From an uncultured archaeon (GTDB lineage Archaea; Asgardarchaeota; Thorarchaeia; Thorarchaeales; Thorarchaeaceae): a DNA stretch of 23,087 nt. The stretch covers positions 1 through 23,087 of the forward strand of contig CAYYQL010000038.1 of NCBI GenBank assembly GCA_964473825.1, read 5' to 3'. The notes under the pieces were generated by a model. It was given only the letters and a program-made list of their open reading frames with translations. It had not been told where the DNA came from and ran no database searches. The translations under genes were made by a program, and so were the position numbers. Positions 772 through 22,976 of this stretch are shown here, one piece after another (position 1 is the first letter of the stretch; each line of letters begins with the position of its first letter).

Positions 772-1069
772 AGATAGAACATCCTAGGCGCACGCTGGTG
801 TCGTCTACAACGAATATCCTCTTATATGCACGCTTAGAACACGTGTACTAAGTTGCACCGAAGCCGCAATAGAATCAATATGAACATGGCTCAGAAGGAG
901 GCTGTGGTGCTTCATAGCTTCCACGGGAAAACAATAAATGCAGACTGCGTTAGCTCAAAGCAGTTGGCTCGTATATGACCATATAGATTGTGGTCTGTCG
1001 CAGGTAATGAAGGGCGAAGAATCCGTAGCCTGCAACCAAAGCAATAATCGCGAAGATGGAGTGGATCAA

Positions 1070-3058: not shown

Positions 3059-3061
3059 TTC

Positions 3062-5302: not shown

Positions 5303-5427
5303 AAGCACGCGTCCAGTGCTATCAAGGGCAACAGATACGGCTCTCTTGCAGTGTGAAGAAACTCATAAGACCCAATGCAATTATGTATCGTAGACTATGC
5401 ACCTAGAGTTCAAACGAGGAATTACCC

Positions 5428-6366: not shown

Positions 6367-6372
6367 AGATGG

Positions 6373-7629
6373 CTAAGCTTTTCGTATCTTTTTCTCAAGG
6401 CCTCTTAGCCTCTTCTGGTCATCGCCCAGTCGGAACTTCTCTGCGGCCTCTTGATATAACGCAAGAGCATCACGTGACATTCCCTTCTTAACCAAGTCGT
6501 CTCCCTCTGACTCGATGAGCTTCCCCCAATCCGAATAGCATTCGCGGACCTTCTCAGCACACTTTCCACGCATCTTGGCATTTGTGGTGAACATGTAAAT
6601 CTCTCTTGCCTTCTTGTATTGCACAATAGCCCATTCGAACTCGTCTTCTTTCTTGTGCTCTTCTGCCTGGTCATAGTGGAATTCCGCCATGGCCTCATAT
6701 CCGTCATCTATTTTCTTGCGAGCATCATCAACCGCTTTCTCGTAGTTGGCTCTTTCAAATAGCTTCTTTGCCATTTCAAAGGACTCTATAGCTTTCTCAT
6801 GTTCATTTGCTTCGAGTAGCTCTTCTCCGTGCTCAATTCGCGCCTTTCCCATGGCTTCAAACACGTAGTCCGGATAATCGAATCCGTCTCCGGTGATTGC
6901 TGCTCCGCAACTCGGACAGCTTGGAGTCTTCAATTCCTTCATCGGTTCGTCGATTCCTATCCTCTCGGGTTTGCCGACTATTACATCGATGAACTCCTTC
7001 GAAGTTACCCCTCTTCCACTGGGAAACAGATGTGCAACCGTGTCAGTGGGGTCCTCGCATTCTCCATGGGGGAACAGATGATCGCGTGCTTCGCTCATTG
7101 ACGATTCTTCACACCGGCCATCCTCCACTATATCCGGAGGTTCAACCTCGATGAAGGGGTTTCCTACTTTCACATCATCTGGTGTTATGACCCTGTCTTC
7201 TGGAGCCTCCCATGTCAGGCTTTCTTCATCCATGCTCTTCGCTGATTCATCTTCATCCGAACGGATATCATCTACTTCCCAGCTGAGTGCCATGTCCGTT
7301 ACCTCCTGATCGGTTCCTTCGTCATGCAACTCCTCCGGCTCTTCTGTGAGAGGTTCTAGGTCTGACTCCTCAAGAGGCGGCAAGATATCTAACTCATCAC
7401 CCTCCTCTCTTGTAACCTCCAGACTGTCGCCATCTGCAAGCATGTTAGTCATCTTTGATTTCAGGGCCTCGAGTTCGGGATTAAGCTGAGTGGTATCCCC
7501 TCCTTCTTTGGGTGATTCCTCTTTAGCCTCCTCTTGTGGCCCGAGTCTCGTACCACATGTCATGCAATGGGTCGACCCTTTTCCCACGCGAGCTCCACAT
7601 TCTGGACAGAAGTTGATATCGGCCACCAT
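6373..7629 (-). CDS. Hypothetical protein: double zinc ribbon, long acidic linker, C-terminal TPR/SNAP-like helical repeats
   Basis: FCPECG...HCMTCG at the N-terminus; E/D-rich low-complexity middle; lone CPSCG; three helical repeats with A-x3-(F/Y)-x2-A-x3-(F/Y) patterns. Confidence 0.75.
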   Translation of the reverse strand: MVADINFCPECGARVGKGSTHCMTCGTRLGPQEEAKEESPKEGGDTTQLNPELEALKSKMTNMLADGDSLEVTREEGDELDILPPLEESDLEPLTEEPEELHDEGTDQEVTDMALSWEVDDIRSDEDESAKSMDEESLTWEAPEDRVITPDDVKVGNPFIEVEPPDIVEDGRCEESSMSEARDHLFPHGECEDPTDTVAHLFPSGRGVTSKEFIDVIVGKPERIGIDEPMKELKTPSCPSCGAAITGDGFDYPDYVFEAMGKARIEHGEELLEANEHEKAIESFEMAKKLFERANYEKAVDDARKKIDDGYEAMAEFHYDQAEEHKKEDEFEWAIVQYKKAREIYMFTTNAKMRGKCAEKVRECYSDWGKLIESEGDDLVKKGMSRDALALYQEAAEKFRLGDDQKRLRGLEKKIRKA

Positions 7630-7777
7630 ATGTATCCGCCAAATTATTCTGGACTGGAATAGATAAGGTAACTTGGTCTTTCCTTACAAATCGAAGAAAC
7701 CCATACCTCATTTGTGAATGTAAAGATCAGTCCACCATTTATCTCGCTCTAGTCATTTCATAAGAGTTACTCGTATC

Positions 7778-8404
7778 TCATGCCGGGGCGTATAGAGTCG
7801 CGTATACTGCCAGAGTTATCACAATTCCAATGAGGAGCCCCAAGAGTCCTTGTTCTAGGGAGTGTTGTTTCAGAGTCATCCGCGACCATACCACAAGAAA
7901 CCAAATGGGAACGACAAGTAGCGCCACGACACCGTACATCCAGATAAGAGCAGTCCCCGGTCCTGAAACCCCCGCGGCATGGACGGAGACCTTCGTATAA
8001 TGATTGGTCATCGTTACACCGGAGGTGACAAAGACGTACGCAGCAGCCAGTATGGCCATCACTGTGCATTGTGTCAGTGAGTATAATATGTAGGCCAACG
8101 CATAGCAGGCGATTGAGAATAAGAAGTATCGTCCTCTGTGTTCCCGCCGGGATACATCGAGGTCAACATGCCCTCTCCAAGCATTGATGAGAATCGGACT
8201 AATAGGCAATATCACCATGGTCAGGGCACATATGAACACCAGCTCAATAGGCCCGAGGACCGGGCCTAGTCCAATGGGCGAAGTGAGCGCAATCAGGAGT
8301 GCGATATAGAGGTTGAACAGGGGCGCAGCTGTCAAGCGTGAGATCACTCTTGCTAGACTGACCTTTCGGCCTTTCAGTTTCAAGACTTGATCCCCGAATA
8401 GCAT
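7778..8404 (-). CDS. Integral membrane PAP2-superfamily phosphatase-like protein
   Basis: About 6-7 hydrophobic helices; KVSVHAAG and WSRMTLKQHSLEQ match PAP2 motif 2 and motif 3 (SRxxxxxH) variants. Confidence 0.7.
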   Translation of the reverse strand: MLFGDQVLKLKGRKVSLARVISRLTAAPLFNLYIALLIALTSPIGLGPVLGPIELVFICALTMVILPISPILINAWRGHVDLDVSRREHRGRYFLFSIACYALAYILYSLTQCTVMAILAAAYVFVTSGVTMTNHYTKVSVHAAGVSGPGTALIWMYGVVALLVVPIWFLVVWSRMTLKQHSLEQGLLGLLIGIVITLAVYATLYAPA

Positions 8405-8565
8405 AACTCATTCCTCAGTCATGAAGGGCTTCTGCTCTGTCTTTTTGAAGTGTTTGGTATTTGAATTGCTCCAGCTGTTAGGTGTTCTTCATGTAGAAAG
8501 ACAGGGAAAACCTTTATTCACTGAAATTACTCCTAGCAGACAACAGTTTTCGTGAACCCTTACGG

Positions 8566-8886
8566 ATGTGCTCCAAAATGCCAGCAATGCCAAAGCGCGA
8601 GATGTTCGAACAGATAATACAGAGCATTACGACTAAATTTCCTGATGTATACGCTGCCCTCTTCATTAGTCCTGAAGGCTTCCCAATCAACACGTGGGGA
8701 GTGTCTATGGAGCGCGCTGAAGAAATCTCGGCGCTTCTGAGTTCGCTTATTGGCAAGACTAAGGAGATCATATGCCAGGTAAGCGAAGGTGCTGCAATGC
8801 AGTTCATCCAGATTGCAACTAATATCGGGTCTATCAGGATCGCTCCTCAAGAGGAGTATATCCTTGTGACACTGGCGAAGAACTGA
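8566..8886 (+). CDS. Roadblock/LC7 (MglB-like) domain protein
   Basis: ~100 aa with pattern helix-DVYAALFISPEGFPI-helix(EEISALLSSL)-IQIATNIGSIRIAP-YILVTLAK; alternative ATG starts at 8578 and 8587. Confidence 0.85.
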   Translation: MCSKMPAMPKREMFEQIIQSITTKFPDVYAALFISPEGFPINTWGVSMERAEEISALLSSLIGKTKEIICQVSEGAAMQFIQIATNIGSIRIAPQEEYILVTLAKN

Positions 8887-8993
8887 TACGCTTTTCTGAT
8901 TCGCTGATGCTATGCATGCAAGGGTGCAGTTCGTGTTGCGTCTATGAGACCATAACTATAACTATCTCTCACTCGGTGGAACCACTAGTGCCA

Positions 8994-9002
8994 TTTTTAT
9001 AA
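8994..9002 (+). promoter_or_regulatory. Putative archaeal TATA box of radA
   Basis: TTTTTATAA ending 35 bp before ATG 9037 in an intergenic region. Confidence 0.45.
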
Positions 9003-9036
9003 GATACAGAGTAACTCAACACTAATAACGTGCTTC

Positions 9037-10095
9037 ATGAGAGATGGACACGTCAACTCAAGACTGAGGGAGGTCAGAAAAATTTCACCCGACGATAATG
9101 AAGATGTAGACTATGAAGAATTCGAGGAAGAGGAAGAGGACTTCGAAGAGGATGAAGAGGATATCGAAGTTCAGGATCTGCCCGGAGTAGGTCCGGCAAT
9201 CAGCAAGCGGTTGGCTGAGGCAGGGTACAAGAGTGTTGAGGCTATAGCCGTAGCCTCTCCCAGTGAGTTAGCTGCCGCGGGTTCAATTGGCGAAACCACT
9301 GCAACGAAGATTATCAAGGCTGCTCGGGAGATGCTTGATATCGGCTTTGAAACAGCAGACCTTCTGCTGGAGCGCAGACACAACGCAGGGAGAATCACGA
9401 CCGGCTCAAAAGCCATCGATGAGCTCTTTGGTGGTGGGGTGGAAACACAAAGCATAACTGAGATGTATGGTTCGTTTCGTTCGGGCAAGACACAGATGGC
9501 CCATCAGCTGGCGATAAATGTACAAATGCCCCCGGGTGAGGGCGGACTGGGCGCCACTGCAATCTATGTCGACACAGAAGGCACTTTTCGCCCTGAACGT
9601 CTTGTGGATATGGCAGAGCCCCTCGGACTCGATCCGGAAAAGGTCCTGAAGAATGTTGTCTGGGCCCGCGCGTACAACTCTGATCATCAGATACTCCTGT
9701 GCGACCAAGCCATGGAAATGGCTCCAGAGAAGAATGCCAAACTCCTAGTTCTTGACTCGGTGACCAGTCACTTCCGTGCTGAGTACACCGGCCGAGGAAC
9801 CCTTGCAGCTCGACAACAGAAACTCAACAAACACCTACACCATCTACAACGGGGTGCCGAAGTCAACAATATGGCTGTCTACATCACCAATCAGGTCATG
9901 TCGCGACCCGACGCTTTCTTTGGGGATCCAACTGCACCTGTCGGTGGCCATGTTCTCGCGCATGTACCCCAGACAAGGTGCTATCTCAGAAAATCAAAGG
10001 GTGAGAGGCGCATCTGCAGATTAGTGGACTCACCAAACCTTCCCGAAGGAGAAGCAGTCTTTACAATCACAAAGAATGGAATTGGCGATGTGTAA
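9037..10095 (+). CDS. radA: DNA repair and recombination protein RadA (Rad51/Dmc1 family)
   Basis: N-terminal HhH domain DLPGVGP, polymerisation motif GFETA, Walker [21 protein letters not shown], Walker [37 protein letters not shown]; start uncertain (see findings). Confidence 0.97.
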
Positions 10096-10098
10096 CTG

Positions 10099-10124
10099 GA
10101 TCCGCCTCAGATGAGGGGCGGGTC
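10099..10124 (+). terminator. GC-rich hairpin between convergent radA and GGR genes (possible terminator or 3'-stabilising stem)
   Basis: GATCCGCCTC-AGATGA-GGGGCGGGTC: 10-bp stem with two G-U pairs on the + transcript, 3 nt after the radA stop. Confidence 0.4.
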
Positions 10125-10134
10125 TTGTCCCTGG

Positions 10135-11487
10135 CTATGAGAAGTCTGCCTGCTCAATTATACCTAAGACTTGCTCATTCCATTTCTCAAGTCCGTCTGG
10201 CCTTAATGGGTAGTTCTCGTAAAGAATCCCTATTTTCTTCATGAGGCTTGCTGCTCTCTGAATCTTTATGAGAAGTCGGATGTTCTTCATTCCCCTTCTG
10301 AATCGTTTGAGTTTCTCCGATAGACCCATTGAGAATCCTTCTCCCCTGTTGGCGTTCATCAAGTCTTCAGCCTCAAGTAGACGCTTCTCAAAGCCGAAAT
10401 CCATCTCTTCATCCGAAACTTGCTGTAAAAGCCTTCTGAATATCTCTAGCGATGCCAACCTACTTCCAAAGTCAGAGAGATACCTTGTATTGTACGTCCA
10501 GAGTCCTTTTGCAGTTGGTTTTCTTCCTGCAATCGCCTCTTTCGCTACTTCTCCCAGTATGGTCCCGGCTCTCATCCCAGCTCCAATGCCGCCTCCATGA
10601 ATGGGGTTGGTCTGCAGCGCCGCGTCGCCGACGAACGCTACGCCATCACCGACAAGACTCATCATCGGGCGTCTCACGGGAACTGCTCCACCGGAACTCT
10701 CCAACACTTCACTTTCGTTAAACAACGGATATTCCTTCTTGAATTCCAAGAAATGGGACTTGGGTGAACCCCTTCCCTTGCCTCCACAAACTCCAACACC
10801 GACGTTGACTTGCTCGACGCCCTTGGGAAACATCCAAGCATAACCTCCGGGCGCAATGCTCCCTCCGAGGAATACTCGCGCAACTTCTGGCTCTCGAAGA
10901 GGTCCACTCAGCTTCAGTATCTCCCTGTAACAGAGGGCTACATCCTCTTTGTCTATCTCCTTCTCTATGTACGGATGGTCAATCTTGTTGCGGAGGACCC
11001 CAGCAAAGCCACTTGCATCAACTACAAGCTTCGAATACACTCTGTGGTCTTCTCTTGTGTTCAGGTCTCGGTATGCAATCCCCACCACTTGTTCAGATCT
11101 CAGTATTGGTTCTTTGACATGGCAATCAGGATAGAAGTATACTCCGGCTAGTATTGCCTCTTGAAGCAATCTTTGGCCAAACTTCCATCTGTCAACTGTC
11201 CATCCGTCGAAGTCCTTCCATCCCCGAACCCGCAGTTCATTAGACAGACTGGGGGGATATACATCTGCCCCTGCTATCACCGTGGATATCTCATCTCCGC
11301 CTGGATAGTCGATACCTGTGGCCTCAAAATGGGATTTGCTTATCTCATCTCCACAGACCTTTGATCCAACTTGCTCTCGTGGTTTTCTGTCAAGCATGAG
11401 TGTTCTAAGACCCATCTCACAACACCTACGAGCTGTGACGCAACCTGCAGAGCCTGCTCCAACAACAACGACATCTGGATGCTTCAA
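10135..11487 (-). CDS. Geranylgeranyl reductase family flavoprotein (digeranylgeranylglycerophospholipid reductase-like)
   Basis: DVVVVGAGSAG, KVCGD, VVDASG, APGGYAWMFPKG, VNVGVG, GGAVP, VGDAA, NPIHGGGI; TTG start. Confidence 0.88.
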   Translation of the reverse strand: MKHPDVVVVGAGSAGCVTARRCCEMGLRTLMLDRKPREQVGSKVCGDEISKSHFEATGIDYPGGDEISTVIAGADVYPPSLSNELRVRGWKDFDGWTVDRWKFGQRLLQEAILAGVYFYPDCHVKEPILRSEQVVGIAYRDLNTREDHRVYSKLVVDASGFAGVLRNKIDHPYIEKEIDKEDVALCYREILKLSGPLREPEVARVFLGGSIAPGGYAWMFPKGVEQVNVGVGVCGGKGRGSPKSHFLEFKKEYPLFNESEVLESSGGAVPVRRPMMSLVGDGVAFVGDAALQTNPIHGGGIGAGMRAGTILGEVAKEAIAGRKPTAKGLWTYNTRYLSDFGSRLASLEIFRRLLQQVSDEEMDFGFEKRLLEAEDLMNANRGEGFSMGLSEKLKRFRRGMKNIRLLIKIQRAASLMKKIGILYENYPLRPDGLEKWNEQVLGIIEQADFS

Positions 11488-11656
11488 TTTTAGTCACGAG
11501 TGCAGTAGTTGCCGTAGATATAAATCCGACTTCTTAGATTGCCTCCTTCTCTCCCATCTTGATCGATGTATGTCCTCTCTTGGGTGAGAGATAGCTGACA
11601 GTTAACCTGACTCCTGCACAAGTGTTATCAAGGCTTTTAGGTCCGGGCCAAATCGG

Positions 11657-12964
11657 TTGAGTATGGCTAATCTCGTTATCCTCGGTCTCCAATGGGGTGA
11701 TGAAGGAAAAGGGAAGATTGTGGACTATCTGTCCGCAGGATTTGACATCATTGTTAGATTCCAAGGGGGGAATAATGCAGGCCATACTGTCAAGATTGGA
11801 GATAACACATACCGACTCAGGTTGATTCCAACCGGTGCTGTACGGGGAAAGAGAGTTGTCATCGGAAATGGTGTGGTTGTGGACCCGCGCACGTTGGTAG
11901 ATGAGATATCTGACCTCAAGAACGCAGGTATCACTGTTGATCTCCTATTGAGTAACAGGGCGCACATAACCACTCCTTACCATGTCAAGATTGACGAGCT
12001 TCAGGAGATCGAGAAGGGGGAAACCCAGATTGGTACAACGAAGAGAGGCATTGGTCCAACATATTCGAACAAGATAGACAGAGTCGGTCTGAGAGTTGCC
12101 GATTTCTTGACCGAATCCGCGGAGTCAGTTGACAGATTTCGAGAAATGACATCGGCGAAGGTCGCTGCTCTCTTCGGCATCGAGCCGACAGACGAGCTCA
12201 AAAATGAGTATGAGCTGTGCTATACACTTGTGCGATCTCTTGAACCGCATATTGGCGACACCGGTGAGTACCTGAGAGCGGCGATACAGAGAGGCGAACG
12301 TATGCTTTTCGAGGGCGCTCAGGGAGCCATGCTAGACATAGATCACGGAACCTACCCATTTGTGACATCTTCCAACTGCAGCGTTGGGGGTGTTTCAACA
12401 GGAACTGGAGTTCCCGTATCTCAAGTTGGTTCTGTTCTTGGAGTCACGAAGGCATATGTTACGAGGGTGGGAACCGGCCCCTTTCCCACTGAATTACACG
12501 ACAGTGTTGGTAAGACTATCCAAGCACGAGGGAACGAATTCGGTACAGTCACAGGCAGACCAAGGCGGTGCGGCTGGCTTGACTTGGTTGCCCTACGATA
12601 TGCAGTAGCGCTGAATGACGCACGCCATCTTGCAATCACCAAGATAGACGTGCTTTCTGGCCTCTCAAAGCTTAAAGTCTGCACAGGCTACGAATTGAAC
12701 GGTTCCGAGACCTCATCCATTCCTGCACATGCAGACGACTACGAATTAGTAGAACCCATCTATGAAGAAGTGAAAGGGTGGGCTGCTCCCGACGAAGGGG
12801 ACTGGACCAAGGTCTTGGAATGCGGGCCTGATTCTCTGCCAGCCAATCTCCCAGAGTATGTAGAGCTGATCGAGAGATTCACCAAGTCAGAAGTGAAACT
12901 GCTCTCATTTGGACCTAAGCGAGAAGAGACCTTGGTCTTGGATGAGAAATGGTTTCAAGGCTAG
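11657..12964 (+). CDS. purA: Adenylosuccinate synthetase
   Basis: GLQWGDEGKGK, RFQGGNNAGHT, IGTTKRGIGP, FEGAQG, DHGTYPFVTSS, KAYVTRVGTGPFPTE, EFGTVTGRPRRCGWLD; start is TTG 11657 or ATG 11663. Confidence 0.97.
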   Translation: MSMANLVILGLQWGDEGKGKIVDYLSAGFDIIVRFQGGNNAGHTVKIGDNTYRLRLIPTGAVRGKRVVIGNGVVVDPRTLVDEISDLKNAGITVDLLLSNRAHITTPYHVKIDELQEIEKGETQIGTTKRGIGPTYSNKIDRVGLRVADFLTESAESVDRFREMTSAKVAALFGIEPTDELKNEYELCYTLVRSLEPHIGDTGEYLRAAIQRGERMLFEGAQGAMLDIDHGTYPFVTSSNCSVGGVSTGTGVPVSQVGSVLGVTKAYVTRVGTGPFPTELHDSVGKTIQARGNEFGTVTGRPRRCGWLDLVALRYAVALNDARHLAITKIDVLSGLSKLKVCTGYELNGSETSSIPAHADDYELVEPIYEEVKGWAAPDEGDWTKVLECGPDSLPANLPEYVELIERFTKSEVKLLSFGPKREETLVLDEKWFQG

Positions 12965-13506
12965 ATGTGTTTGAACTCAATTATCACTATTGACAGGATG
13001 ACTATCAGTACTATCAGAAGCAGGATTGGAGGCATCCAGTTGAGAAAGAGCTCGAAGTATCCAACAATCGTTGATGGGTCAAGTGCGATAACAACGAGGT
13101 GGGCATAGATCAAAAGGAACCCATAGACTGCAAATATGGGGTAGAATACTGGACCGCCGCTTATGACTAGAAGCAGAACAATGAGTGCTAGACGACTCTT
13201 GGTTGGGTCAAGAAGTGAGACCGGTATTGTTTCATCATCATCGAACTGGAAGTAGTAGCTCGGAAGAAATGTTGGTTTCCGAACCCGTAGTAGTTCGAGT
13301 ATCTGTACTCCTAGTTGCACTGATAGGAGTACTAAAGTATGCACAAGCATATAGCCCAAGATCAAAGCATTGAGTATCGGCAAGTCCTCTTGGAAGATTT
13401 GAAAGCTGTCAACAACACTAACAAGAACGCAGAAGTTGATGGCAAAGAGGGCCAAATGTCCGAACACACCTCTGATTAACTGGGCCCTTTCTGGCATTGC
13501 AATCAA
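12961..13506 (-). CDS. Hypothetical multi-pass membrane protein (about 4-5 TM)
   Basis: 181 aa with several long hydrophobic segments and one polar loop (RKPTFLPSYYFQFDDDETIP); 17 bp downstream of the Rab-like gene on the same strand; ATG 13497 is an alternative start. Confidence 0.75.
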   Translation of the reverse strand: MIAMPERAQLIRGVFGHLALFAINFCVLVSVVDSFQIFQEDLPILNALILGYMLVHTLVLLSVQLGVQILELLRVRKPTFLPSYYFQFDDDETIPVSLLDPTKSRLALIVLLLVISGGPVFYPIFAVYGFLLIYAHLVVIALDPSTIVGYFELFLNWMPPILLLIVLIVILSIVIIEFKHI

Positions 13507-13523
13507 TCCGTTTGTCCTTTAAG

Positions 13524-14126
13524 CTAGGTCATTTTGGATGGTTTTCCGGGTGTTATCGATCCTGTCTGCTTCTTCCCGGATTGACGTGCCTGTTTCTGTT
13601 TTTCAATCGCCCTCTGTACAAGGTCTGTAAACAAGTCGTTAACGTTCTCACCAGTCTTGGCTGATGTTTCATAGTGCATGACATCCAGCCATTTCTTGAC
13701 CATCTCTCCGGCCTCAGGAGGCACAAGTCTATCCGGACGGTCTATCTTGTTTGCGACAACCGTTACAACGGCATTAGGGCAGACTGCAATAAACTTGGTG
13801 AACCACTCACCTATGTCCAGGAAGGTCTGAGGACGCGTTACGTCGTATACGATTATCGCCATCGATGCGCCGGCCATGTATCGTCTTCTGAGCTCATTAT
13901 AGGTGGGCTGGCCAGCGAGGTCCCAGAGCACAACACGAGCTGTGATATCGCCGCCATCGGGCATTTCCAGATTCACTGTCTTTAGCGCGAATGTCGTACC
14001 AATGGTCATGATGTAGCGTTCGCTGAAGCTGTCCTCCGTGTATCGCTTGATACAGCTTGTCTTGCCAACAGCCCCATCTCCTAGGGCAACAAGCTTGAAC
14101 ATGTGCGATATCTCTTTTGTGGACAT
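13524..14126 (-). CDS. Ras-superfamily (Rab-like) small GTPase, paralogue 1
   Basis: G1 GDGAVGKT, G2 TIGTTF, G3 WDLAGQ, IVYDVT, G4 NKID, G5 ETSAK; GAGGT SD; basic tail with no C-terminal Cys. Confidence 0.93.
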   Translation of the reverse strand: MSTKEISHMFKLVALGDGAVGKTSCIKRYTEDSFSERYIMTIGTTFALKTVNLEMPDGGDITARVVLWDLAGQPTYNELRRRYMAGASMAIIVYDVTRPQTFLDIGEWFTKFIAVCPNAVVTVVANKIDRPDRLVPPEAGEMVKKWLDVMHYETSAKTGENVNDLFTDLVQRAIEKQKQARQSGKKQTGSITPGKPSKMT

Positions 14127-14371
14127 CTTGATAACGACCTCTGGTACACTGCCTCGAAAGAAACCATCTGTCCATTTAATGATTCTGGGAATGTCCTCCC
14201 ATCAATGTTTCAAGGTGAATACTGTCTATGTTCACCGGCACACCTCTAAGGAAGTGCTCCAAGAGCGTCCGGTTCGGATGTCACCTTCTTGAAGCACGCA
14301 ATAGACACCCTCAAAGCTTTTTTCTACTAGGTGTGTATGTCTGATATGACGATTATAGCAGGTGAAGTCCT

Positions 14372-15118
14372 ATGGCAGAGCAGTTTCTGAACAAACTGAA
14401 TGAGATCGAGAAGAGCATAGACTCTCTTGGTGATACCCTGAAACGCATGATTACGATTCTCTCGACACTCAACGAGATCAAGTCGGAGGTTCGGGTCTCG
14501 AAGGAGGAAATCATCAATCGGATGCAGCAGATGTCGTCTCAGCCTGCAGATACCACCGCCGGAGAAGCGACTCAGAAGTTGACTGCTGAAGTTCAGTCTG
14601 TGAAAGAGGAGCTGATTTCTGCTATCTCTGCAATGGGGGCTTCACAGTCGGGCGTATCACGGGACGAAGTAAACGAGATAGTCAAGTCCGAGATTGATGA
14701 GTTGGGCAAGTTCATCATCGAAAGCATCGAAGACATGAAAGAAGACTTGATTGTGGCACTGAAGTCAGCTCCTACGGCGGTTGCAGCACCACGAGTAGCA
14801 GAAGTTCAGGGAGAAACAACTCCCGTGGCCTCTGACGCGACTCTTGCTCCTGACCGTGCAATGAAGATTGCTGATCAGCTCCAGGTGATCTTGGATTCGC
14901 TCAAGATGGGATGTGTCGCGGGGGACGTTCTGGAGACCATGAATGAGGCCAAGTCCAACATCATGAGTATCGTACCGAGCGACCCAATCATGGTGAAAAT
15001 CGACAAGTGGGCTGGTGTTGTAAAGGCATATTCAAAGAGGCACGAGCTGCAGGCACGTGACATCCTGAAATTGAAAAAGGACTTGCGTGAAGAGATTTCG
15101 AAGTATAGACCTGCCTAG
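14372..15118 (+). CDS. Coiled-coil protein with a C-terminal Vps28-CTD-like four-helix bundle (tentative)
   Basis: AGGTGA SD; helical N-terminal 130 aa, Ala/Pro/Thr linker, and a C-terminal 85 aa with LDSLKMxxxAxDxL...KIxxW...S...L...IxxLxxDL resembling the Vps28 CTD as I recall it. The CDS is secure; the domain call is by eye. Confidence 0.6.
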   Translation: MAEQFLNKLNEIEKSIDSLGDTLKRMITILSTLNEIKSEVRVSKEEIINRMQQMSSQPADTTAGEATQKLTAEVQSVKEELISAISAMGASQSGVSRDEVNEIVKSEIDELGKFIIESIEDMKEDLIVALKSAPTAVAAPRVAEVQGETTPVASDATLAPDRAMKIADQLQVILDSLKMGCVAGDVLETMNEAKSNIMSIVPSDPIMVKIDKWAGVVKAYSKRHELQARDILKLKKDLREEISKYRPA

Positions 15119-15519
15119 TCTTCAGAGGCTCCCCCTGCAATCATCTTCATAGTTGCAAGTACACGGATCAAGTCTGTTGTAGTGACCATTCCTATCGTCT
15201 GATTACCATCTACAACAGGGATGTGTTTCTTCCCTGTTCTATCCATAAGGGCGATGGCCTGCCAGAGGTCTGCGCTGGGGGATATGCTGACTACTTCAGT
15301 TGTCATGATGTCACCCAGTCTGAGCCCCTCGTAGGCTTCCGGAGAGAGTAGTTGTGCAGAGATGAGATCTCTCTGGGTCACAATGCCCACCATGGTATCT
15401 CCCTTGGTGATAACGAGACTGCCGATGTCTTCAGCAGCCATGAGCTTGGCAGCATCCGACACATGCATCGATATATCTGAAGTCACCAGAATTGATGTCA
15501 TGAACTCTCTCACTTGCAT
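15115..15519 (-). CDS. Stand-alone CBS-pair (Bateman) domain protein
   Basis: VREFMT...AAKLM...IGSLVI...VGIVTQRDL and LGDIMT...AIALM...HIPVVD...IGMVTTTDL; GGAG SD. Confidence 0.92.
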   Translation of the reverse strand: MQVREFMTSILVTSDISMHVSDAAKLMAAEDIGSLVITKGDTMVGIVTQRDLISAQLLSPEAYEGLRLGDIMTTEVVSISPSADLWQAIALMDRTGKKHIPVVDGNQTIGMVTTTDLIRVLATMKMIAGGASED

Positions 15520-15553
15520 CGTCTATGTGCTCCTGTCCGTAGAACTACCGCGG

Positions 15554-16162
15554 CTACATCTCAGTATCACGTTGCTCTTCTAACTTCTTCTCCAGAATCA
15601 AAGTGCCTATCGCTTGAAACACATCTGCCACGGCCGTTCCAGTCTTAGCTGATGTTTCGTAATAGGGTGCTTGGAACCAGTTTCTTAGCATGTGTCCTGG
15701 TTCAATTGGTACCATCCTCTCATCCTTAAGATCTATCTTGTTGGCTGCCAATACTACTTCTGCATCTGGACAAGTCTCTCTGAATGACTCAAACCAGTTG
15801 TTCATGGCCATGAATGTTTCAGGCCTGGTGACATCATAGACAATAATCGCGCCTGCGGCTCCCTTCATGAACTGTCTTCGGAGTTCTCTGTATGTTTCTT
15901 GCCCTGCCATGTCCCAGATTACAAGACGCACATTTCTGGTTTCTCCATCTTCTGATGTGACGGATACATCTCTGCTGGCAAAGGTTGTGCCTATGGTCTG
16001 TTTATACTCTTCATCGAAGACATTCTCAGTGAAACGTCTTAAGACGGAGGTCTTGCCGACCCTTGCATCACCTAGAAGTACAACTCGGAACTTGAATCCA
16101 TCGAAACTTCCACCATCCTCAGTGGGGCTTCTGCTGGTAGAGCTGGAATTCCCTGATGTCAT
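15554..16162 (-). CDS. Ras-superfamily (Rab-like) small GTPase, paralogue 2
   Basis: G1 GDARVGKT, G2 TIGTTF, G3 WDMAGQ, IVYDVT, G4 NKID, G5 ETSAK; GAGGTG SD; Ser-rich N-terminal extension; no prenylation Cys. Confidence 0.93.
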   Translation of the reverse strand: MTSGNSSSTSRSPTEDGGSFDGFKFRVVLLGDARVGKTSVLRRFTENVFDEEYKQTIGTTFASRDVSVTSEDGETRNVRLVIWDMAGQETYRELRRQFMKGAAGAIIVYDVTRPETFMAMNNWFESFRETCPDAEVVLAANKIDLKDERMVPIEPGHMLRNWFQAPYYETSAKTGTAVADVFQAIGTLILEKKLEEQRDTEM

Positions 16163-16282
16163 CCGTTTGCACCTCTGCTGGTTGGCTCGTTATCTCCGCT
16201 TACCCATATTCGAAAAGGATGACTATCTTATATGTTTTCTTCGCAGTTTCTACCGCCACACGTTGGGCTCACCAATTGCGGG

Positions 16283-17944
16283 TTACCATGCCCCATCCTG
16301 AGGTAGATTCATCTCGAAGGCTACGACGGGGTTTCCTATCTCGAAATTCGTTAAGACTATCGGATTGATTTCTCCCACAATGCCCACATCTTCCTGATCT
16401 ATCAGTATTCTGGCGGAACGTCCAGTGATGAAAGAGGGATCTCTACATGATGCAAATCTGAAGCGTCCTTTGAGTCCCATTCCCCTAAGAACGAATGTCA
16501 ACTCGCGAAGCAATTCGGTCACATCAACTCTGTTGTTCGTAGTCATTGCACAGAGTGCAGTGAGCTGACGTGTTCTGGTCTCTGCATGTTGGTCAGGCAG
16601 CACAATGTCTCCCACCTCAAACACCTTCTGAGGATAGTCTGCGTGTTGGTTTCTTGCTGCGAAATCCAGAATGACAGGGAGTAGCGAGTTTCTAAGAACC
16701 GAGAAGTCTCTACTCTTCGGATTTGCTGTACTCACGTAGGGTGCATGTCTTTCCATCTTCAGATTGAGGGCTTCTGGCGATGTCATAACATAGCTCATGA
16801 CCTCTTGGTAACCCGCGCCCACCATTAGATCTCGGACTTTGTTCTTCAACCGGGTCATCGTACGCAAGCCTCCAATGGTCATGGTCTCCGGCAGTGTTGG
16901 GTCTATGTTATCAAAGCCGTATCCTATGGCAACATCTTCGATGATGTCAACAGGGTGTAGAACGTCCACTCTAAATGCAGGAACCTTGACTTTCGCTGTT
17001 CCCTTCTTCACTTCTGCACCATAGCACATTCTTCTCAGACTCTCTCTGATTTCCTTATACGTCAGGTCAAGTCCTAGTAGCTGTCTGATCCGCTGCACGT
17101 CAACTTCCATATTCCGGGGCTCAAGGACTGGTGTTTGCATAGTAGTTCCATCAGGATATAGAATCTCCACAGATTCTATCTTTCCCCCACGTTCGGCTAG
17201 AGAAGTAGTCATGATATTGAGGCACTGCTCTACCGTGGGTAGGTGAGTTCCTGTCACCTCGACGAAGATGTTCTTTGTGTCTTCGGAGATCTTTCCAAGG
17301 TCGTTGCTGTTGATAATCGGGGGGAGGCTTAGAATCTTACCTGCATTATCCGCTAACAGTGGCCACCTCTCGAAGTCAGAGATGACATGCCCAAATTCGA
17401 TTCCCTTCTCATGCTTTTTCAGTATTGTTGGGCCGTCCATCGGCTCATCATAACCTAGTGGGACAAACTTGATCTTTTCAGGGTCCTCCGTTCCGTAATA
17501 TACAGGGAAGTCAAGCTCGTCGTGTACATAGAGTCCAATACTCGCCTTGTTTCGATTCCGACCATGAGTTGATGTCAACATCTCTTGAAGACGCATGTAT
17601 TCTTTGATGAGCTGGTCACTTGTCTCTACGCCTTTCACTATGCCGCAGGCAATGTACTTCCTGATCTTTTCTAGTCCTCTCTCAACCACTATTTTCTTTC
17701 CTGATTCCTTGACCGGGAACCTGGGCAGACCAGGGCTGATATCAAGGAATGCCCGTAATGCCCGTGCAATCCCCTCGGTGGAAAGCATGTCCTGCCTGTC
17801 AGGGTTCACCTCTATGTCTATCGTTCCGTCGCCGAAACCTTCAACTTCGGATTTGAGGAGGAACAGCTTATTCTCGAGCTGCTCTTCTGTCATCTTATGG
17901 CCTATGAGCTTCAGGAGACTCTCAATCATACATGTTACAATCAT
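16283..17944 (-). CDS. pheT: Phenylalanine--tRNA ligase beta subunit (archaeal/eukaryotic type)
   Basis: IEVNPDRQDMLSTEGIARAL, HGRNRNKASIG, LSLPPIINS, VPAFRVDVLHPVDIIEDVAIGYG, LRNSLLP, PQKVFEVG; GAGGTGA SD overlapping the pheS stop. Confidence 0.96.
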   Translation of the reverse strand: MIVTCMIESLLKLIGHKMTEEQLENKLFLLKSEVEGFGDGTIDIEVNPDRQDMLSTEGIARALRAFLDISPGLPRFPVKESGKKIVVERGLEKIRKYIACGIVKGVETSDQLIKEYMRLQEMLTSTHGRNRNKASIGLYVHDELDFPVYYGTEDPEKIKFVPLGYDEPMDGPTILKKHEKGIEFGHVISDFERWPLLADNAGKILSLPPIINSNDLGKISEDTKNIFVEVTGTHLPTVEQCLNIMTTSLAERGGKIESVEILYPDGTTMQTPVLEPRNMEVDVQRIRQLLGLDLTYKEIRESLRRMCYGAEVKKGTAKVKVPAFRVDVLHPVDIIEDVAIGYGFDNIDPTLPETMTIGGLRTMTRLKNKVRDLMVGAGYQEVMSYVMTSPEALNLKMERHAPYVSTANPKSRDFSVLRNSLLPVILDFAARNQHADYPQKVFEVGDIVLPDQHAETRTRQLTALCAMTTNNRVDVTELLRELTFVLRGMGLKGRFRFASCRDPSFITGRSARILIDQEDVGIVGEINPIVLTNFEIGNPVVAFEMNLPQDGAW

Positions 17945-17950
17945 ATCGAT

Positions 17951-19462
17951 TCACCTCGTGAAATACTTCCTTCGTATCCATGTCAGGTCTCGACTGAACA
18001 CATTCCTAATATCATCAATATCCATGGCCGCCATGTACATTCGGCTTGCTCCCAGCCCCCATGCCAACACAGTTTCTCTTATTCCCAATGGATGGGTGAC
18101 CTCTGGTCTGAATATGCCTCCAGGTGCCACCTCGATCCAACCAAGCTTTTCATGTTTAGCATAGCCTTCGACGCTTGGCTCTGTGAATGGAAACTGACCG
18201 GGTTTGAACTTCAGTTTCTTAATCCCCACGCTCCTGCATATCTCTCGGATATAGCCCATCAGGTCCCTCAGCGTCAGTCCCTCGTCCCATATGATCCCTT
18301 CGCACTGGTCGAACTCTTGGCCATGCGTGGCACTGAGGGTTTCAGACCTGAAGTTACGTTCAATTATGAACATCTTATGTGGAGGTTCGGAATGTGCGGC
18401 TAAGTACCTGGCCGAAACAGGCGTTGTGTGGGATCTCAGGCAGAGCCTTGTGGCAATCTCTCTGCTGAATTCGGCCTGCCACCCCTTAGAACCTGTGTTT
18501 CCTCCATCTTCATGAACCATTTTGACCTGTTCGAAGTGTTTTTCGTCAGGTATAGTTCCATGGTCATAAGGCTCATCTACGCGGAACTGATCCTGGACTT
18601 CTCGGGCTACGTGGTCTTGAGGCACGAATAGCACATCATTGTTCCAGAATTCTGTTTCAACATAAGGCCCCCACCATTCTGTGAATCCAAGACCGATTAG
18701 CTCCTCCTTCAGCCAGTCGATGAATTCTGCATAGGGATGCTTCCTGCCTGCATTGGCCGAGGGTGGAATGATCTCCATGTTGTAAGGTTTGAAGCTCTTG
18801 CCATGCCAGTCACATGATGCAAGCATCCTTGGAGTCAGATTGAGTATGTCTTCCCCTTCTATACCGATCAGTGTTTCAGCTTTAGATTTGTCAATGGCCA
18901 GAGAGGCAACGAATACCTTCTGTATGCTGGTTTGAACAAGGGTTCTTTCTTGGGCCTGTCGAAGCCCTTCTAGAAGCCCCTTCTCAATCTCAGTTACTCC
19001 ACTGCTGAGGAGATTGAGCAGCTCCTGAACTGAGGAAGCCATGTCCTCCTTCAACACTTCAAACACTGACTGTCCATCTTTCTTCGTTATGCTCAGCCAA
19101 TCGTTCTTCCGGCACCAACTGATTGCAATCCCCTTGGTCTTCGCGCTCAGGCCAGCGGCCGAGACAGCTGCATCCATATCTGCGGTTCCTCCAGCATTTT
19201 TCACCGCTTCGAAAAGTCGAATCTCCGGCAACCCGTCAGTCGCGTACTCAAGTCCCTCTTCGGTCAGCCCGTAGGACTCGACCTCTTGAATCTCCAAGTT
19301 AACGAGTGACTTCTCGGCCAAAGAATTCAGGATTGAAACGACTCTTTCTCTCCTGTCATTCATCCTCCTCGCCAACAGCTCAGCATGGGCCCTATCGTCT
19401 ATCTTTAGAAGCTCTGAGACAACTCTTCTCTCTCCTTCTGTCAACTGGATGTCGTCAGTCAA
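17951..19462 (-). CDS. pheS: Phenylalanine--tRNA ligase alpha subunit (archaeal/eukaryotic long type)
   Basis: LTEEGxEYxxxGLPE, GRKHP, FWNNDVLFVPQDHVARE, LRSHTT, FRSE, EFDQCEG, FPFTEPS, GIFRPEV, LAWGLG. The ORF is open to 19528; TTG at 19462 is the more plausible start. Confidence 0.96.
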   Translation of the reverse strand: MTDDIQLTEGERRVVSELLKIDDRAHAELLARRMNDRRERVVSILNSLAEKSLVNLEIQEVESYGLTEEGLEYATDGLPEIRLFEAVKNAGGTADMDAAVSAAGLSAKTKGIAISWCRKNDWLSITKKDGQSVFEVLKEDMASSVQELLNLLSSGVTEIEKGLLEGLRQAQERTLVQTSIQKVFVASLAIDKSKAETLIGIEGEDILNLTPRMLASCDWHGKSFKPYNMEIIPPSANAGRKHPYAEFIDWLKEELIGLGFTEWWGPYVETEFWNNDVLFVPQDHVAREVQDQFRVDEPYDHGTIPDEKHFEQVKMVHEDGGNTGSKGWQAEFSREIATRLCLRSHTTPVSARYLAAHSEPPHKMFIIERNFRSETLSATHGQEFDQCEGIIWDEGLTLRDLMGYIREICRSVGIKKLKFKPGQFPFTEPSVEGYAKHEKLGWIEVAPGGIFRPEVTHPLGIRETVLAWGLGASRMYMAAMDIDDIRNVFSRDLTWIRRKYFTR

Positions 19463-19874: not shown

Positions 19875-20951
19875 TTGGACCTGAAGCGATTGAAGCTAAA
19901 GCGGAAGATAGCAGAACTAAAAGAGCTGAAGGGTCGTCATAGCTCATTTACCACTCTGTACGTTCCCCCTGACAAGAACTTGACTGATGTTATCAACTTC
20001 GTCAAGGCTGAGCTGGCCGGTGCGGAGAATATCAAAAGCAAGGCAAACCGAAAGAATGTTTCTGACAACCTCACTGCGATATTGAGCGAACTCACAAAGA
20101 TTCCCGAGCTGCCTGAAAATGGAATTGCATTCTTCTTCGGGATTCAGGAAGAAGGCGGTACTCAGGAAGAAATCCGTGACATTGTTGTGCCTCCCGCCCC
20201 TATTTCTCAATTTGTCTATATTTGTGGCCGTGAATTCGTGACTGAAGAACTCGAGAGCATGGTGGAACCAAAGAGCCTCTCTGTCATCGTCCTTATTGAG
20301 GGTGGTAAGGTTACAATCGGCTATCTGCGCGGTAAGCACATAGAACTAGTACGAGATGAGGATTTCTATATCATCGGGAAGACGCGCGCGGGAGGGCAGA
20401 GTGCTCGTCGATATGACCGCATTCGCGATGAGAAGATGCAAGACTTCTTCAAATATGTAGCAGAACTGCTTCAGGAGCTGCTTATCGACAAGCTCGACCA
20501 AGTCGACGCTATAATACTCGGTGGAAACACGATTCGTGCCCAAGAGTTTCTTGAAAAGGGTGGTCTCGACTATCGCCTCAGAGAGAAGGTAGCAGATGCA
20601 ATAATCTCCGTAGGTATGATCGATGAGACTGGACTGTATCAAGCAGTCAAAGAGGCTTCGCGGATAATGCGTGAGAGCGAGATATATGCTGAGCGCAAAG
20701 AATGGGATTCTTTCATGGAAGACCTGATGAAAGGTATGAACACCGTGACATATGGGAAGAAGGAAGTTATGCAGGCTCTTGAACAGGGCAGAATTGACAC
20801 GGTAATGGTCTTGGAGGGGCATGAGCTGCTGGATGAGCTGGTTCAAGAAGTGGAAAACTACGGCACGGAGATTATGGTCTTTTCAAACCAAACCGAGTCA
20901 GGTGCCCAGCTCGAGTCGCTTGGGGGCATTGCTGCTCGACTTCGGTGGTAA
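19875..20951 (+). CDS. prf1: Peptide chain release factor aRF1
   Basis: TLYVPP, NIKS, PENG, YICGREF (YxCxxxF), GKTRAGGQSARRY, TYG, LGGIAARLRW; TTG start with GAGG SD. Confidence 0.95.
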   Translation: MDLKRLKLKRKIAELKELKGRHSSFTTLYVPPDKNLTDVINFVKAELAGAENIKSKANRKNVSDNLTAILSELTKIPELPENGIAFFFGIQEEGGTQEEIRDIVVPPAPISQFVYICGREFVTEELESMVEPKSLSVIVLIEGGKVTIGYLRGKHIELVRDEDFYIIGKTRAGGQSARRYDRIRDEKMQDFFKYVAELLQELLIDKLDQVDAIILGGNTIRAQEFLEKGGLDYRLREKVADAIISVGMIDETGLYQAVKEASRIMRESEIYAERKEWDSFMEDLMKGMNTVTYGKKEVMQALEQGRIDTVMVLEGHELLDELVQEVENYGTEIMVFSNQTESGAQLESLGGIAARLRW

Positions 20952-20961
20952 TGAAGAAATA

Positions 20962-21384
20962 CTACTCTCTTGGGGGTCTTGGTAGCTCGCTCAGATTCAC
21001 AATGTCCTCAATCCACGCAGCAAGATGGTCGGAGATATCCTCCACGTATCTCATCAGAGCTTCCTGGAATCTGTGAAGCTTATCATGGTCCAGCTTCCTC
21101 GTTTTTGATTTGTAGTCTTCAACCCTTCTGGGTAGACCCATTGCCCACTTCCTCAGGCTGACCTCAGCTTTTCGGTCGGACAGAATTCTTTTTGCGGTCC
21201 CATCTTTCCTCCAGGTTTCAATCAGGTCTTCAACCAGTCGCTGGACTCCAATCAGCGCTGCAACAGCCTCTTTTGCGTCATCCTTCTTGGCTCGATTGCG
21301 GGTTGTATAGTATACTTCCTTCAGCTCGCGCTTCGCATTCATGACCTTGCCAAGGAAACTCCTGAGTTCTTGCATGACTGTCAC
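20962..21384 (-). CDS. Hypothetical basic all-alpha-helical protein
   Basis: Only long ORF filling the gap; amphipathic helices. The ORF is open to 21471, overlapping the upstream gene; GTG 21384 or ATG 21375 is more plausible. Confidence 0.7.
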   Translation of the reverse strand: MTVMQELRSFLGKVMNAKRELKEVYYTTRNRAKKDDAKEAVAALIGVQRLVEDLIETWRKDGTAKRILSDRKAEVSLRKWAMGLPRRVEDYKSKTRKLDHDKLHRFQEALMRYVEDISDHLAAWIEDIVNLSELPRPPRE

Positions 21385-21449
21385 GTGTGCTTTGACCAAG
21401 ATTACTCTTTTGCATCTAATTCGGTTCATGGTATGTTCTATACGATTTA

Positions 21450-22103
21450 CTAGATGATCGAGTACTGGCATCTGCCGTCCCGACTGAAGGGACAGATTAT
21501 GCAGACGCTCCTATTTGGATTAGGCTCGGGTGCCTTGTTACGAAACCAGTAGTCATCCATCTTCCGCAATTGCGAAATCGTCCGTGATGGTCTGAATCTC
21601 TCAACCATAACCGAGGCATTCTTGCATCTAACGCAGTTGGCGACATTTTTCTTCTGGCAGGCTCTCGCATGCTCTTGAAGGCAGTAGATCGTGACCAGTT
21701 TGGTGGTGCTGCACGAAACACCCGAGTCTTGGAGAGCAAGAGCATAGAGACTTGCTTGGAAGAAATCCTCTTTCCGTGGTTCTCGTGGCAGAAATCTGGT
21801 CGGGTATTTCCTTTCAATGACAGCCTCAAGAATTCCCACTTGATTGAACCCCAAGACCGCAGCGTCGAATCTTCCTGTGTATCTATGAGTCAACGAAATG
21901 ACACTTTGTTCTCTGAAGAGCCATCGCTTGCGACTTCCGTCAAGGTCTTGTTCAAGGAATTCACGTAATGGTATGGGGGATTGTGATGCAGTCGCTATAA
22001 CATTCCGAATCCTTGACGCCCCGCCGTTAGCCCTTATCATAGAGAGCAAGAATGCTCCAATGATGAAGAATGCAAGAAGAATCATGCTTGATATTTCGCT
22101 CAA
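21450..22103 (-). CDS. Cas4-like PD-(D/E)XK nuclease, catalytic C-terminal part with an N-terminal TM helix
   Basis: TM ILLAFFIIGAFLLSMI; YTGRFD (motif II), VIERK (ExK), QASLYALAL (QxxxY), C-terminal CIICPFSRDGRC; lacks the first Fe-S Cys motif. Confidence 0.78.
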   Translation of the reverse strand: MSEISSMILLAFFIIGAFLLSMIRANGGASRIRNVIATASQSPIPLREFLEQDLDGSRKRWLFREQSVISLTHRYTGRFDAAVLGFNQVGILEAVIERKYPTRFLPREPRKEDFFQASLYALALQDSGVSCSTTKLVTIYCLQEHARACQKKNVANCVRCKNASVMVERFRPSRTISQLRKMDDYWFRNKAPEPNPNRSVCIICPFSRDGRCQYSII

Positions 22104-22369
22104 AGTAATCCCACCATCACCCAGAGAATGCCAGCTATCACCGTCAAGATGGCAATAAAGACAAAGATTACCTCGTCATCGATGACGCGGTGTTCTGCTG
22201 AGGCTCGATCCGTCCTGTGGAGATGAGTGCCAACTCTCTGTGCTTGGCTCTTAGGGGATCCGAACTTCTGTCGAAGATAAAGTCGATACTCGCAGAGATA
22301 CTGGACTCTCAGTTCAGAAACCTGACGAAACTTTTTCATCTGTGTTCGCTTTGAAGGCATGTGTCTCAA
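22100..22369 (-). CDS. Cas4-like N-terminal part (first Fe-S Cys and GxxxH helix) with a C-terminal TM anchor
   Basis: VSELRVQYLCEYRLYL and AQRVGTHLH match the Cas4/AddB-type N-terminal signature; ends in VIFVFIAILTVIAGILWVMVGLL; TTGA stop/start overlap with the next ORF; start is TTG 22369 or ATG 22360. Confidence 0.72.
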   Translation of the reverse strand: MRHMPSKRTQMKKFRQVSELRVQYLCEYRLYLRQKFGSPKSQAQRVGTHLHRTDRASAEHRVIDDEVIFVFIAILTVIAGILWVMVGLL

Positions 22370-22559: not shown

Positions 22560-22976
22560 ATGTCCGAGTACGAAGGAGCCACAGCCGGTCGAGTCCTAGC
22601 TTTTGATGAGAGTGACAGTGTTACTTTTCCGAGTTCATTCAAGGAGGCACTTGGAACAGACCGAGGGCTTATGGTGCTTGTACACAAGGACCGTCTAATC
22701 AAAATCTTCCCGTTGGATGCCTCAGAAGTGAGTTACCTTTCTCTTGAGATCGGAAAACTCACGAATGACTTCCTGACCCGACTCTCACAAATTTTCAAGA
22801 AGTCAGGCCTGATTGATTTGCTATTCTCCACTGGAGTCTGCTTGCGAGGAACTCGCTGCTTCTATGAATGCTATTTCTCACCTGAACAGCTGACTCTTTC
22901 ACTGGACGAACTGAGGGACTCACTTGGAGAACTTGATGGAGTGAGGCGGGTCGTAATCAAGGAAGTAGGGAAGTAG
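22560..22976 (+). CDS. Putative regulator: degenerate AbrB/MazE-like N-terminal domain plus ACT-like domain
   Basis: AGGTGA SD; FDESDSVTFPSSFKEALG resembles the AbrB (D..G.ITIP...R..LG) pattern; C-terminal beta-alpha-beta-beta-alpha-beta pattern ending LGELDGVRRVVI. Confidence 0.6.
   Translation: MSEYEGATAGRVLAFDESDSVTFPSSFKEALGTDRGLMVLVHKDRLIKIFPLDASEVSYLSLEIGKLTNDFLTRLSQIFKKSGLIDLLFSTGVCLRGTRCFYECYFSPEQLTLSLDELRDSLGELDGVRRVVIKEVGK

Follow-up and report, generated by a model that had tools for sequence, protein, structure and literature searches.

The locus described here raises the question of whether two short adjacent reading frames, which between them carry the residues of a Cas4/EXO5-type nuclease and which each also encode a hydrophobic helix, are two genes for the halves of one enzyme or a single gene that has been broken, and, if they are two genes, what a nuclease divided in this way might do. 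Both frames, termed A and B, are found in the window, i.e. the whole 23,087 nt stretch of DNA that was analysed, and have the following features:

ORF A, 22100..22369, minus strand: N-terminal nuclease half, tail-anchored.
A Cys23, 22292..22294, minus strand: first Fe-S staple ligand, inside an EXO5-type Q..CE motif.
A His48 (G..LH), 22217..22219, minus strand: equivalent of EXO5 H121 and SSO0001 H62.
A C-terminal membrane helix, 22103..22171, minus strand: tail anchor with almost no outer tail.
A-B junction, 22100..22121, minus strand: SD-like GGTGA/GGTGG and a TTGA stop-start overlap.
ORF B, 21450..22103, minus strand: N-terminal membrane helix, PD-(D/E)xK core and three staple cysteines.
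B N-terminal membrane helix, 22038..22094, minus strand: predicted N-out, C-in.
B catalytic core (D80, E97, K99, Q116, Y120), 21744..21866, minus strand: aligns to the EXO5 D182/E196 region.
B four-Cys insert (C141-x7-C149-x7/8-C157-x2-C160), 21624..21683, minus strand: invariant in 64/64 pairs.
B staple cysteines (C201, C204, C212), 21468..21503, minus strand: three C-terminal cysteines, invariant.

The motifs of A read VSEL..QYLCEYRLYL and then GTHLH, and its C-terminal hydrophobic run extends over 23 residues (best 19-residue Kyte-Doolittle mean 2.95, residues 64-82). B starts with the TTG at 22103, has its hydrophobic helix at residues 4-22 (mean hydropathy 2.43) and carries GRFD (D80), E97-R-K99, Q116-xxL-Y120 and C201-x2-C204-x7-C212. 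A first-pass annotation had recorded the coordinates and strand of both frames, these motifs, the two helices and a TTGA overlap with SD-like bases upstream, all of which were confirmed in the sequence. Two of its points required correction. It began A at the TTG at 22369, whereas the ATG at 22360 or 22339 is the likelier start because a close orthologue is annotated at 79 aa (A residues are numbered here from ATG 22360), and its inventory of cysteines was incomplete, as C141, C149, C157 and C160 of B had been missed. Pfam and NCBIfam searches gave no match for either A or B of the window taken singly, so that the kinship of these proteins is visible only through family profiles. The orthologues are annotated as hypothetical proteins of Candidatus Thorarchaeota with adjacent locus tags.

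The pair is conserved across the family of the source genome, which excludes a chance occurrence. B is present in single copy in 70 of the 85 genomes of this family, matches in other Asgard families being weak, and A lies directly upstream of B in 68 of 69 distinct loci and is fused to it in none. No fused form was found among 1.84 billion representatives searched, in which the strong matches were all 190-252 aa in length and without the A motif, and a sequence search seeded by the A alignment reached Thorarchaeota only. The frame of B relative to A is offset by +1 in 34 cases and by +2 in 32, with an in-frame stop in a further two, and the spacing between the genes ranges from -19 to +20 nt.

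In the source genome, A and B overlap by the four bases TTGA, and GGTGATGGTGG stands 7 nt ahead of the TTG of B. An SD match of at least five bases was found at the stop of A in 47 of 64 pairs compared with 2 of 64 at the stop of B, and B has a start of its own in 61 of the 64 intact pairs, mostly at +7 (counted from where the A stop codon begins) or at -1, where the two genes overlap. Coupled subunit genes typically show such short start spacing (PMC10666635). Promoter and terminator scans of the locus gave results at chance level only, with tools that were built for bacterial promoters, and no RNA holder is listed.

The rival explanation, which the first-pass annotation had partly allowed for as a frameshifted single gene, is that A and B yield one polypeptide by recoding (frameshift or read-through), or that the locus is misassembled or a pseudogene in decay. 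In its favour are the four-base overlap in the source genome, the termination of A in TGA in 58 of the 64 pairs and the broken copies in a few genomes. However, three different frame offsets and the range of spacings are incompatible with one shared recoding rule, the prevalence of TGA is already explained because TGA belongs to the SD motif for B, B mostly has its own start, and in a second split family, described below, the two halves may stand 470-810 nt apart. Against an assembly error, the junction was free of indels in contigs from four public runs, one of them from a diverged relative and one possibly the source of this assembly. Against decay, selection on both genes is purifying, with a median dN/dS of 0.37 for A and 0.18 for B over the 64 intact pairs. 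Almost nothing is left of this rival in any of its three forms: A and B are two genuine, separate genes, and the frameshift alternative is rejected.

Two further observations indicate that the genes have descended and been lost together. The B tree tracks genus labels with as few changes as are possible, and distances among the A proteins correlate with those among the B proteins at 0.84. In addition, A and B are both cleanly absent, with both flanking genes kept, from four genomes that are 93-99% complete (three in one genus, the fourth in another), and in one further genus the pair is decaying, with insertions in A or replacing it. Such joint clean loss with retained flanks makes A-B one dispensable unit, outside which the downstream gene, ORF C, falls. 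Among individual damaged loci, a transposase-like end takes the place of the A start at L009, A is broken at L013, A is truncated and B gone at L097, a 723-aa ORF replaces A at L103, and at L022 a TAG lies two codons after the first ATG of B.

The genes that flank the pair are as follows:

ORF C, 20962..21471, minus strand: helical-bundle protein downstream of B, with the true start likely further 3'.
ORF D, 22560..22976, plus strand: divergent conserved neighbour, weakly matching PRK08577 and outside the nuclease.

ORF C belongs to no known family, is present in 23 of 23 high-quality genomes of the family and converges on aRF1; modelled from its single sequence (pLDDT 66), it resembled no known fold clearly, the atlas leads being all under 0.9. 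We considered ORF C as a third subunit and rejected this, as it is retained where A and B have been deleted, and it is probably a neighbour rather than part of the nuclease. At one locus (L102, contig C220 of G383), a 12-kb block with a 1755-aa ORF separates B from C, so adjacency of B and C is not obligatory. ORF D is highly conserved (65-96%). Both C and D stay in genomes from which A and B are gone, indicating that the translation neighbours are not partners of the pair.

What, then, do the two chains carry? Q20, C23, G44 and H48 of A, and G77, D80, E97, K99, Q116, Y120 and all seven cysteines of B, are invariant in 64 of 64 intact pairs. Cys23 of A aligns with the invariant cysteine of a soluble EXO5-like family. 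In human EXO5, H121 sits on the crossover helix, beneath which the DNA exits, and its mutation abolishes activity (PMC8710748); H62 of SSO0001 is a metal ligand (PMC13621843). As the equivalent His48 is on A and the core is on B, it is the active site that is divided and not only the cluster, so that the claim of the first-pass annotation that the split affects the Fe-S cluster held and is extended. These data clearly show that the catalytic and staple residues are intact yet divided between the products of two genes that are jointly conserved and jointly lost, and that each chain has one membrane helix located exactly at the break.

The four-Cys insert of B, judged from sequence alone, is likely to form a second metal site for Zn or Fe-S. 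Most soluble relatives lack it, as does the second split family; some soluble EXO5-like relatives (P0032, P0033 and P0045) also have four cysteines inserted at this position, but spaced differently, suggesting that metal modules are easily acquired there.

Both helices are kept in all 64 pairs, with a mean hydropathy of 2.75 for A and 2.65 for B. Lysine and arginine residues are more numerous before than after the A helix in 57 of 64 pairs, and after than before the B helix in 63 of 64, and by the positive-inside rule this would place both soluble parts, and hence both nuclease halves, in the cytoplasm. The single-chain Cas4 described at the end of this section, with four membrane helices at the break site, fits an arrangement with both halves on one side. 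Folded alone, B gave a confident model except in its C-terminal cysteine region (pLDDT 52-72). The predicted A-B complex scored 0.86 against 0.00 for the best control. A score this high was obtained for 58 of 80 solved complexes and for 2 of 110 mismatched pairs; the model runs share at least 77% of contacts, with a partner pLDDT of at least 70. The modelled interface comprises A 20-30 and 47-51, B 80, 200-206 and 211-212, and both helices, and so takes in the regions of C23 and H48 of A and of C201-C212 and D80 of B. Split-gene halves tend to pass such a test through likeness to solved folds, and the model therefore supports pairing of A with B but does not show binding. The earlier proposal of two membrane-tethered cytoplasmic chains, one supplying one and the other three Fe-S cysteines, is thus supported as an inference, for which there are no biochemical data. 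Of the findings that the first-pass annotation had named as refuting it, none was made.

The first-pass annotation had labelled the pair Cas4-like, and this held only in part. By fold, B resembles Cas4, MGME1 and EXO5 equally (against the Cas4 structure 7MI4, Z 10.5 and rmsd 3.0 over 141 residues), while sequence profiles show that the nearest relatives of A-B are EXO5-like and not CRISPR Cas4 proper. The best PDB sequence match of the B profile is human EXO5, and its best atlas structure match is of EXO5 type (TM 0.63). The nearest unsplit relatives are soluble one-chain proteins of 250-270 aa, and 9 of 10 of them score above the Pfam cut-off for Exo5. A aligns to the N-terminus of these proteins (hhalign probability 97%) and B to the remainder (99.7%), so the similarity of A to a Cas4-type N-terminus that the first reading required was found. 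The profile of this soluble family matches human EXO5 at E 5e-21 and the SSO0001 Cas4 at 4e-5, and in the genomes of the source family it found the split genes alone, plus one weak ordinary Cas4.

Compared with EXO5 (PF09810; human structures PDB 7LW7-7LWA), A-B shares the PD-(D/E)xK core, the Q..CE and W...R.P motifs, the catalytic set including the Q...Y motif (D80, E97, K99, Q116 and Y120) and the 1+3 cysteine pattern of the 4Fe-4S staple (A C23 with B C201, C204 and C212), and the crossover-helix histidine (human H121) has its counterpart in His48 of A, on a separate chain from the core. In contrast, EXO5 is one soluble polypeptide and A-B is the product of two genes with two membrane helices, the break and the helices falling just after the crossover helix of the EXO5 fold; the four-Cys insert is an addition in B; and B does not reach the Pfam gathering score for Exo5 (best E 0.1 among 30 B members). 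Furthermore, the DNA-binding R200 of human EXO5, two residues after the Lys of ExK, is Pro in 63 of 64 B proteins, a position that is not Arg in the soluble archaeal consensus either, and in the absence of an R200 equivalent the substrate and polarity of A-B may differ from those of EXO5.

Cas4 (DUF83; PF01930 and TIGR00372; 4IC1, 8D3L and 7MI4) has the same fold, staple and catalytic set as A-B. Unlike CRISPR Cas4, A-B is split and membrane-bound, is without the YC.R motif and is not linked to cas1, cas2 or an array. Matches to TIGR00372 were weak in 23 of 30 B members and, at its cut-off (65 bits), the B of the window gave no match, the sole match of the genome being a separate true Cas4 gene at a CRISPR locus on contig C19. 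Solo-Cas4 proteins (Hudaiberdiev et al. 2017, PMC5704561), including the Solo-Cas4 of M. mazei (PMC12501428), are like A-B in their non-CRISPR locus, vertical descent and purifying selection, but those described in these two papers are one chain with four cysteines, whereas the staple cysteines of A-B are divided; term searches of both papers found no split or membrane-anchored form. By its inferred activity A-B would thus work like EXO5 or solo-Cas4, outside CRISPR, but it fails the single-chain form and score cut-offs of both.

A side observation concerns another Asgard family, f23, in which 12 of 12 genomes encode one-chain proteins of ~320 aa (L238:254-1213 and L239) that alone match human EXO5 at E 1e-22 over nearly their whole length. 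They may be the Asgard proteins most closely related to eukaryotic EXO5, and the literature that we searched for Asgard and EXO5 together contained nothing on this.

The content of the window is that of housekeeping genes (topoisomerase VI, radA, purA, two Ras-like GTPases, pheST and aRF1), and in relatives the A-B pair stands at a constant locus adjoining aRF1 and pheST; its direct neighbours are translation genes and are uninformative on the substrate of the nuclease. No cas1, cas2 or CRISPR array lies within the window, as had been noted at first pass, and cas genes and arrays are absent from the A-B neighbourhood in relatives as well, but the genome does have a CRISPR locus, its cas1, cas4 and arrays being confined to contig C19 and unlinked to A-B. 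That locus (C19 of G000, 33-18475) has two arrays, cas1, cas2, cas4 and an effector module that resembles type I-D, a subtype inferred from resemblance only. Two other genes of the window may be recorded here. The aRF1 (19875-20951, plus strand) is compact at 358 aa and has GGQ, NIKS and YxCxxxF, with GRHSSF replacing the usual GTS loop, and is conserved at ~70% identity in relatives. Topoisomerase VI subunit A (3062-5302, plus strand; 746 aa) has a long N-terminal run of helix-hairpin-helix repeats.

On balance we lean towards A-B being the coupled subunits of an EXO5-like metal-dependent DNase that trims single-stranded DNA at the membrane, the activity being inferred. In this proposal, B would be inserted N-out/C-in and A via its tail, with both soluble parts facing inward; the helices would then pack and the strand and helix of A settle on B, where Cys23 would complete the 4Fe-4S staple and His48 the active site, leaving each chain inactive by itself. 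These two steps of insertion and assembly, although inferred, are jointly well supported and very probably correct. By analogy, on the strength of homology to EXO5, the enzyme would probably thread single-stranded DNA from a free end and degrade it in the 5'-to-3' direction. The weakest step is the last, a putative housekeeping role in trimming ssDNA ends or fragments at the membrane during repair, recombination or clean-up, in which the tether would keep the nuclease off the bulk chromosome; for this inferred role we could argue as readily for as against. It is in keeping with the housekeeping traits of the pair, i.e. single copy, a fixed locus, a tree that follows the genera and its being the sole EXO5-like gene found in the genomes of the family, and with the position of the second split family, described below, next to ssb, NAD kinase and recN. 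Against our preferred explanation as a whole stand the dispensability of the pair, the missing R200, the failure of B to reach the Exo5 and TIGR00372 cut-offs, and a fold that is equally that of Cas4.

The same heterodimer could instead serve DNA uptake or exchange, trimming incoming ssDNA at an entry pore before RadA recombination. The membrane position at the cytoplasmic face, the preference of EXO5-type enzymes for free single-stranded ends (PMC8710748) and the presence of radA 11 kb away in the window speak for this. Against it, ComEC was not found in the five genomes searched, and full-length DprA was detected in one genome that has the pair and one that lacks it, and not in the source genome; with no ComEC and with DprA not tracking the pair, DNA uptake is unsupported here. 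The conserved neighbourhood showed neither pilus nor uptake genes, and we consider this role unlikely.

A role in defence, in which the heterodimer would degrade DNA of viruses or plasmids on its way through the membrane or be triggered by membrane damage, is similarly unlikely. It would suit a location at the entry site and the loss of the pair in some lineages, and Cas4-family nucleases aid Argonaute defence elsewhere (PMC12094033). However, the pair is in single copy, of vertical descent and at one fixed locus amid housekeeping genes, all of which fits housekeeping better than defence; no defence genes were seen beside it; PADLOC gave just a weak generic Cas4 match; and the A-profile and motif search found nothing in the viral contigs and plasmids searched. 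The first-pass suggestions of roles in uptake or defence therefore have no support from the genomic context.

A third possibility is a redox- or metal-sensing membrane module, with the nuclease site acting on RNA or on a DNA end in a protein complex. The second invariant four-Cys site in B, the missing R200 equivalent and the neighbouring aRF1 and PheRS genes could be cited for it, but the DNase site shows no variation at any catalytic residue and, as set out above, the persistence of C and D without A and B argues against translation partners, making this very unlikely. The membrane-tethered EXO5-like DNase remains our preferred reading.

A division of this type is not confined to Thorarchaeota. 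The atlas contains many short A look-alikes labelled Chloroflexota and Bacillota, and this second, mostly bacterial family, whose taxonomy rests on atlas labels, was gathered by a short-motif scan of metagenomes and then checked on 120 retrieved loci. At 76 of the 120 loci, an adjacent gene encodes a helix plus a Cas4 core and none is fused; six loci have the wide spacing given above, and at some loci A stands alone. The common neighbours are ssb (34 loci), NAD kinase (30) and recN (18). Like the Thorarchaeota pair, these proteins are broken after the His helix and have one helix per half with the same charge pattern. In contrast to it, they have the Cas4-type signature ASEIG..YC.R.WW, P.E.K and QL.AY and no four-Cys insert.

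Profile comparisons place the two families apart. Against the soluble EXO5-like proteins, Thorarchaeota A scored 63 and Thorarchaeota B 172, while against the corresponding bacterial halves they scored only 26 and 42. Bacterial B preferred Cas4 (131 against 90), with PDB matches that were all Cas4. In the best tree, the second family is nested in Cas4 and a 99/93 branch separates it from the Thorarchaeota pair; this tree requires two changes of state, and the join of the Thorarchaeota pair to EXO5 is supported by only 93/73. An AU test did not reject a single clade of both split families (p 0.19). Profiles and the best tree thus tilt the case towards two independent origins of the split, although one origin is not excluded. 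A bolder reading, to which we give rather less than even credence, is that Fe-S staple nucleases were split twice independently at the same point, from EXO5-like and Cas4-like ancestors, that cluster and active site would form only where the two chains come together in the membrane, that assembly there would be the on-switch, and that this may represent a widespread unrecognized ssDNA-processing step located at the membrane in prokaryotes.

If the proposed arrangement is true, a natural Fe-S cluster and a nuclease active site would each be built from two membrane proteins, in an EXO5/Cas4-type family otherwise known only as soluble single chains, and Asgard archaea would have an EXO5 relative stationed at the membrane. 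Two independent origins of the split would mean that the design brings a real advantage, e.g. by restricting where or when a hazardous enzyme acts. The underlying chemistry is probably ordinary. Current annotation overlooks the pair by labelling both genes hypothetical, and A-B offers a testable handle on the role of CRISPR-independent Cas4/EXO5-type nucleases in prokaryotes. A split or membrane-anchored Cas4 or EXO5 was undescribed in the literature searched, which mostly did not cover subscription journals; what is new here is the evidence of joint loss, the direct comparison of the two split families and the one-chain form with four helices.

Two loci of the second family may be added. A bacterial-type pair (L250, contig C112 of G024) was seen in a Thorarchaeota assembly that also carries the Thorarchaeota-type pair; it lies on a small contig, and contamination or transfer is possible. 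The four-helix form is a 338-aa ORF (L251, contig C229 of G207, a short contig with its genome assignment unchecked) that encodes a one-chain Cas4 of the second-family lineage, in which the four membrane helices occupy the position where the chain is otherwise broken, and it is possible that this form is an intermediate of the split.
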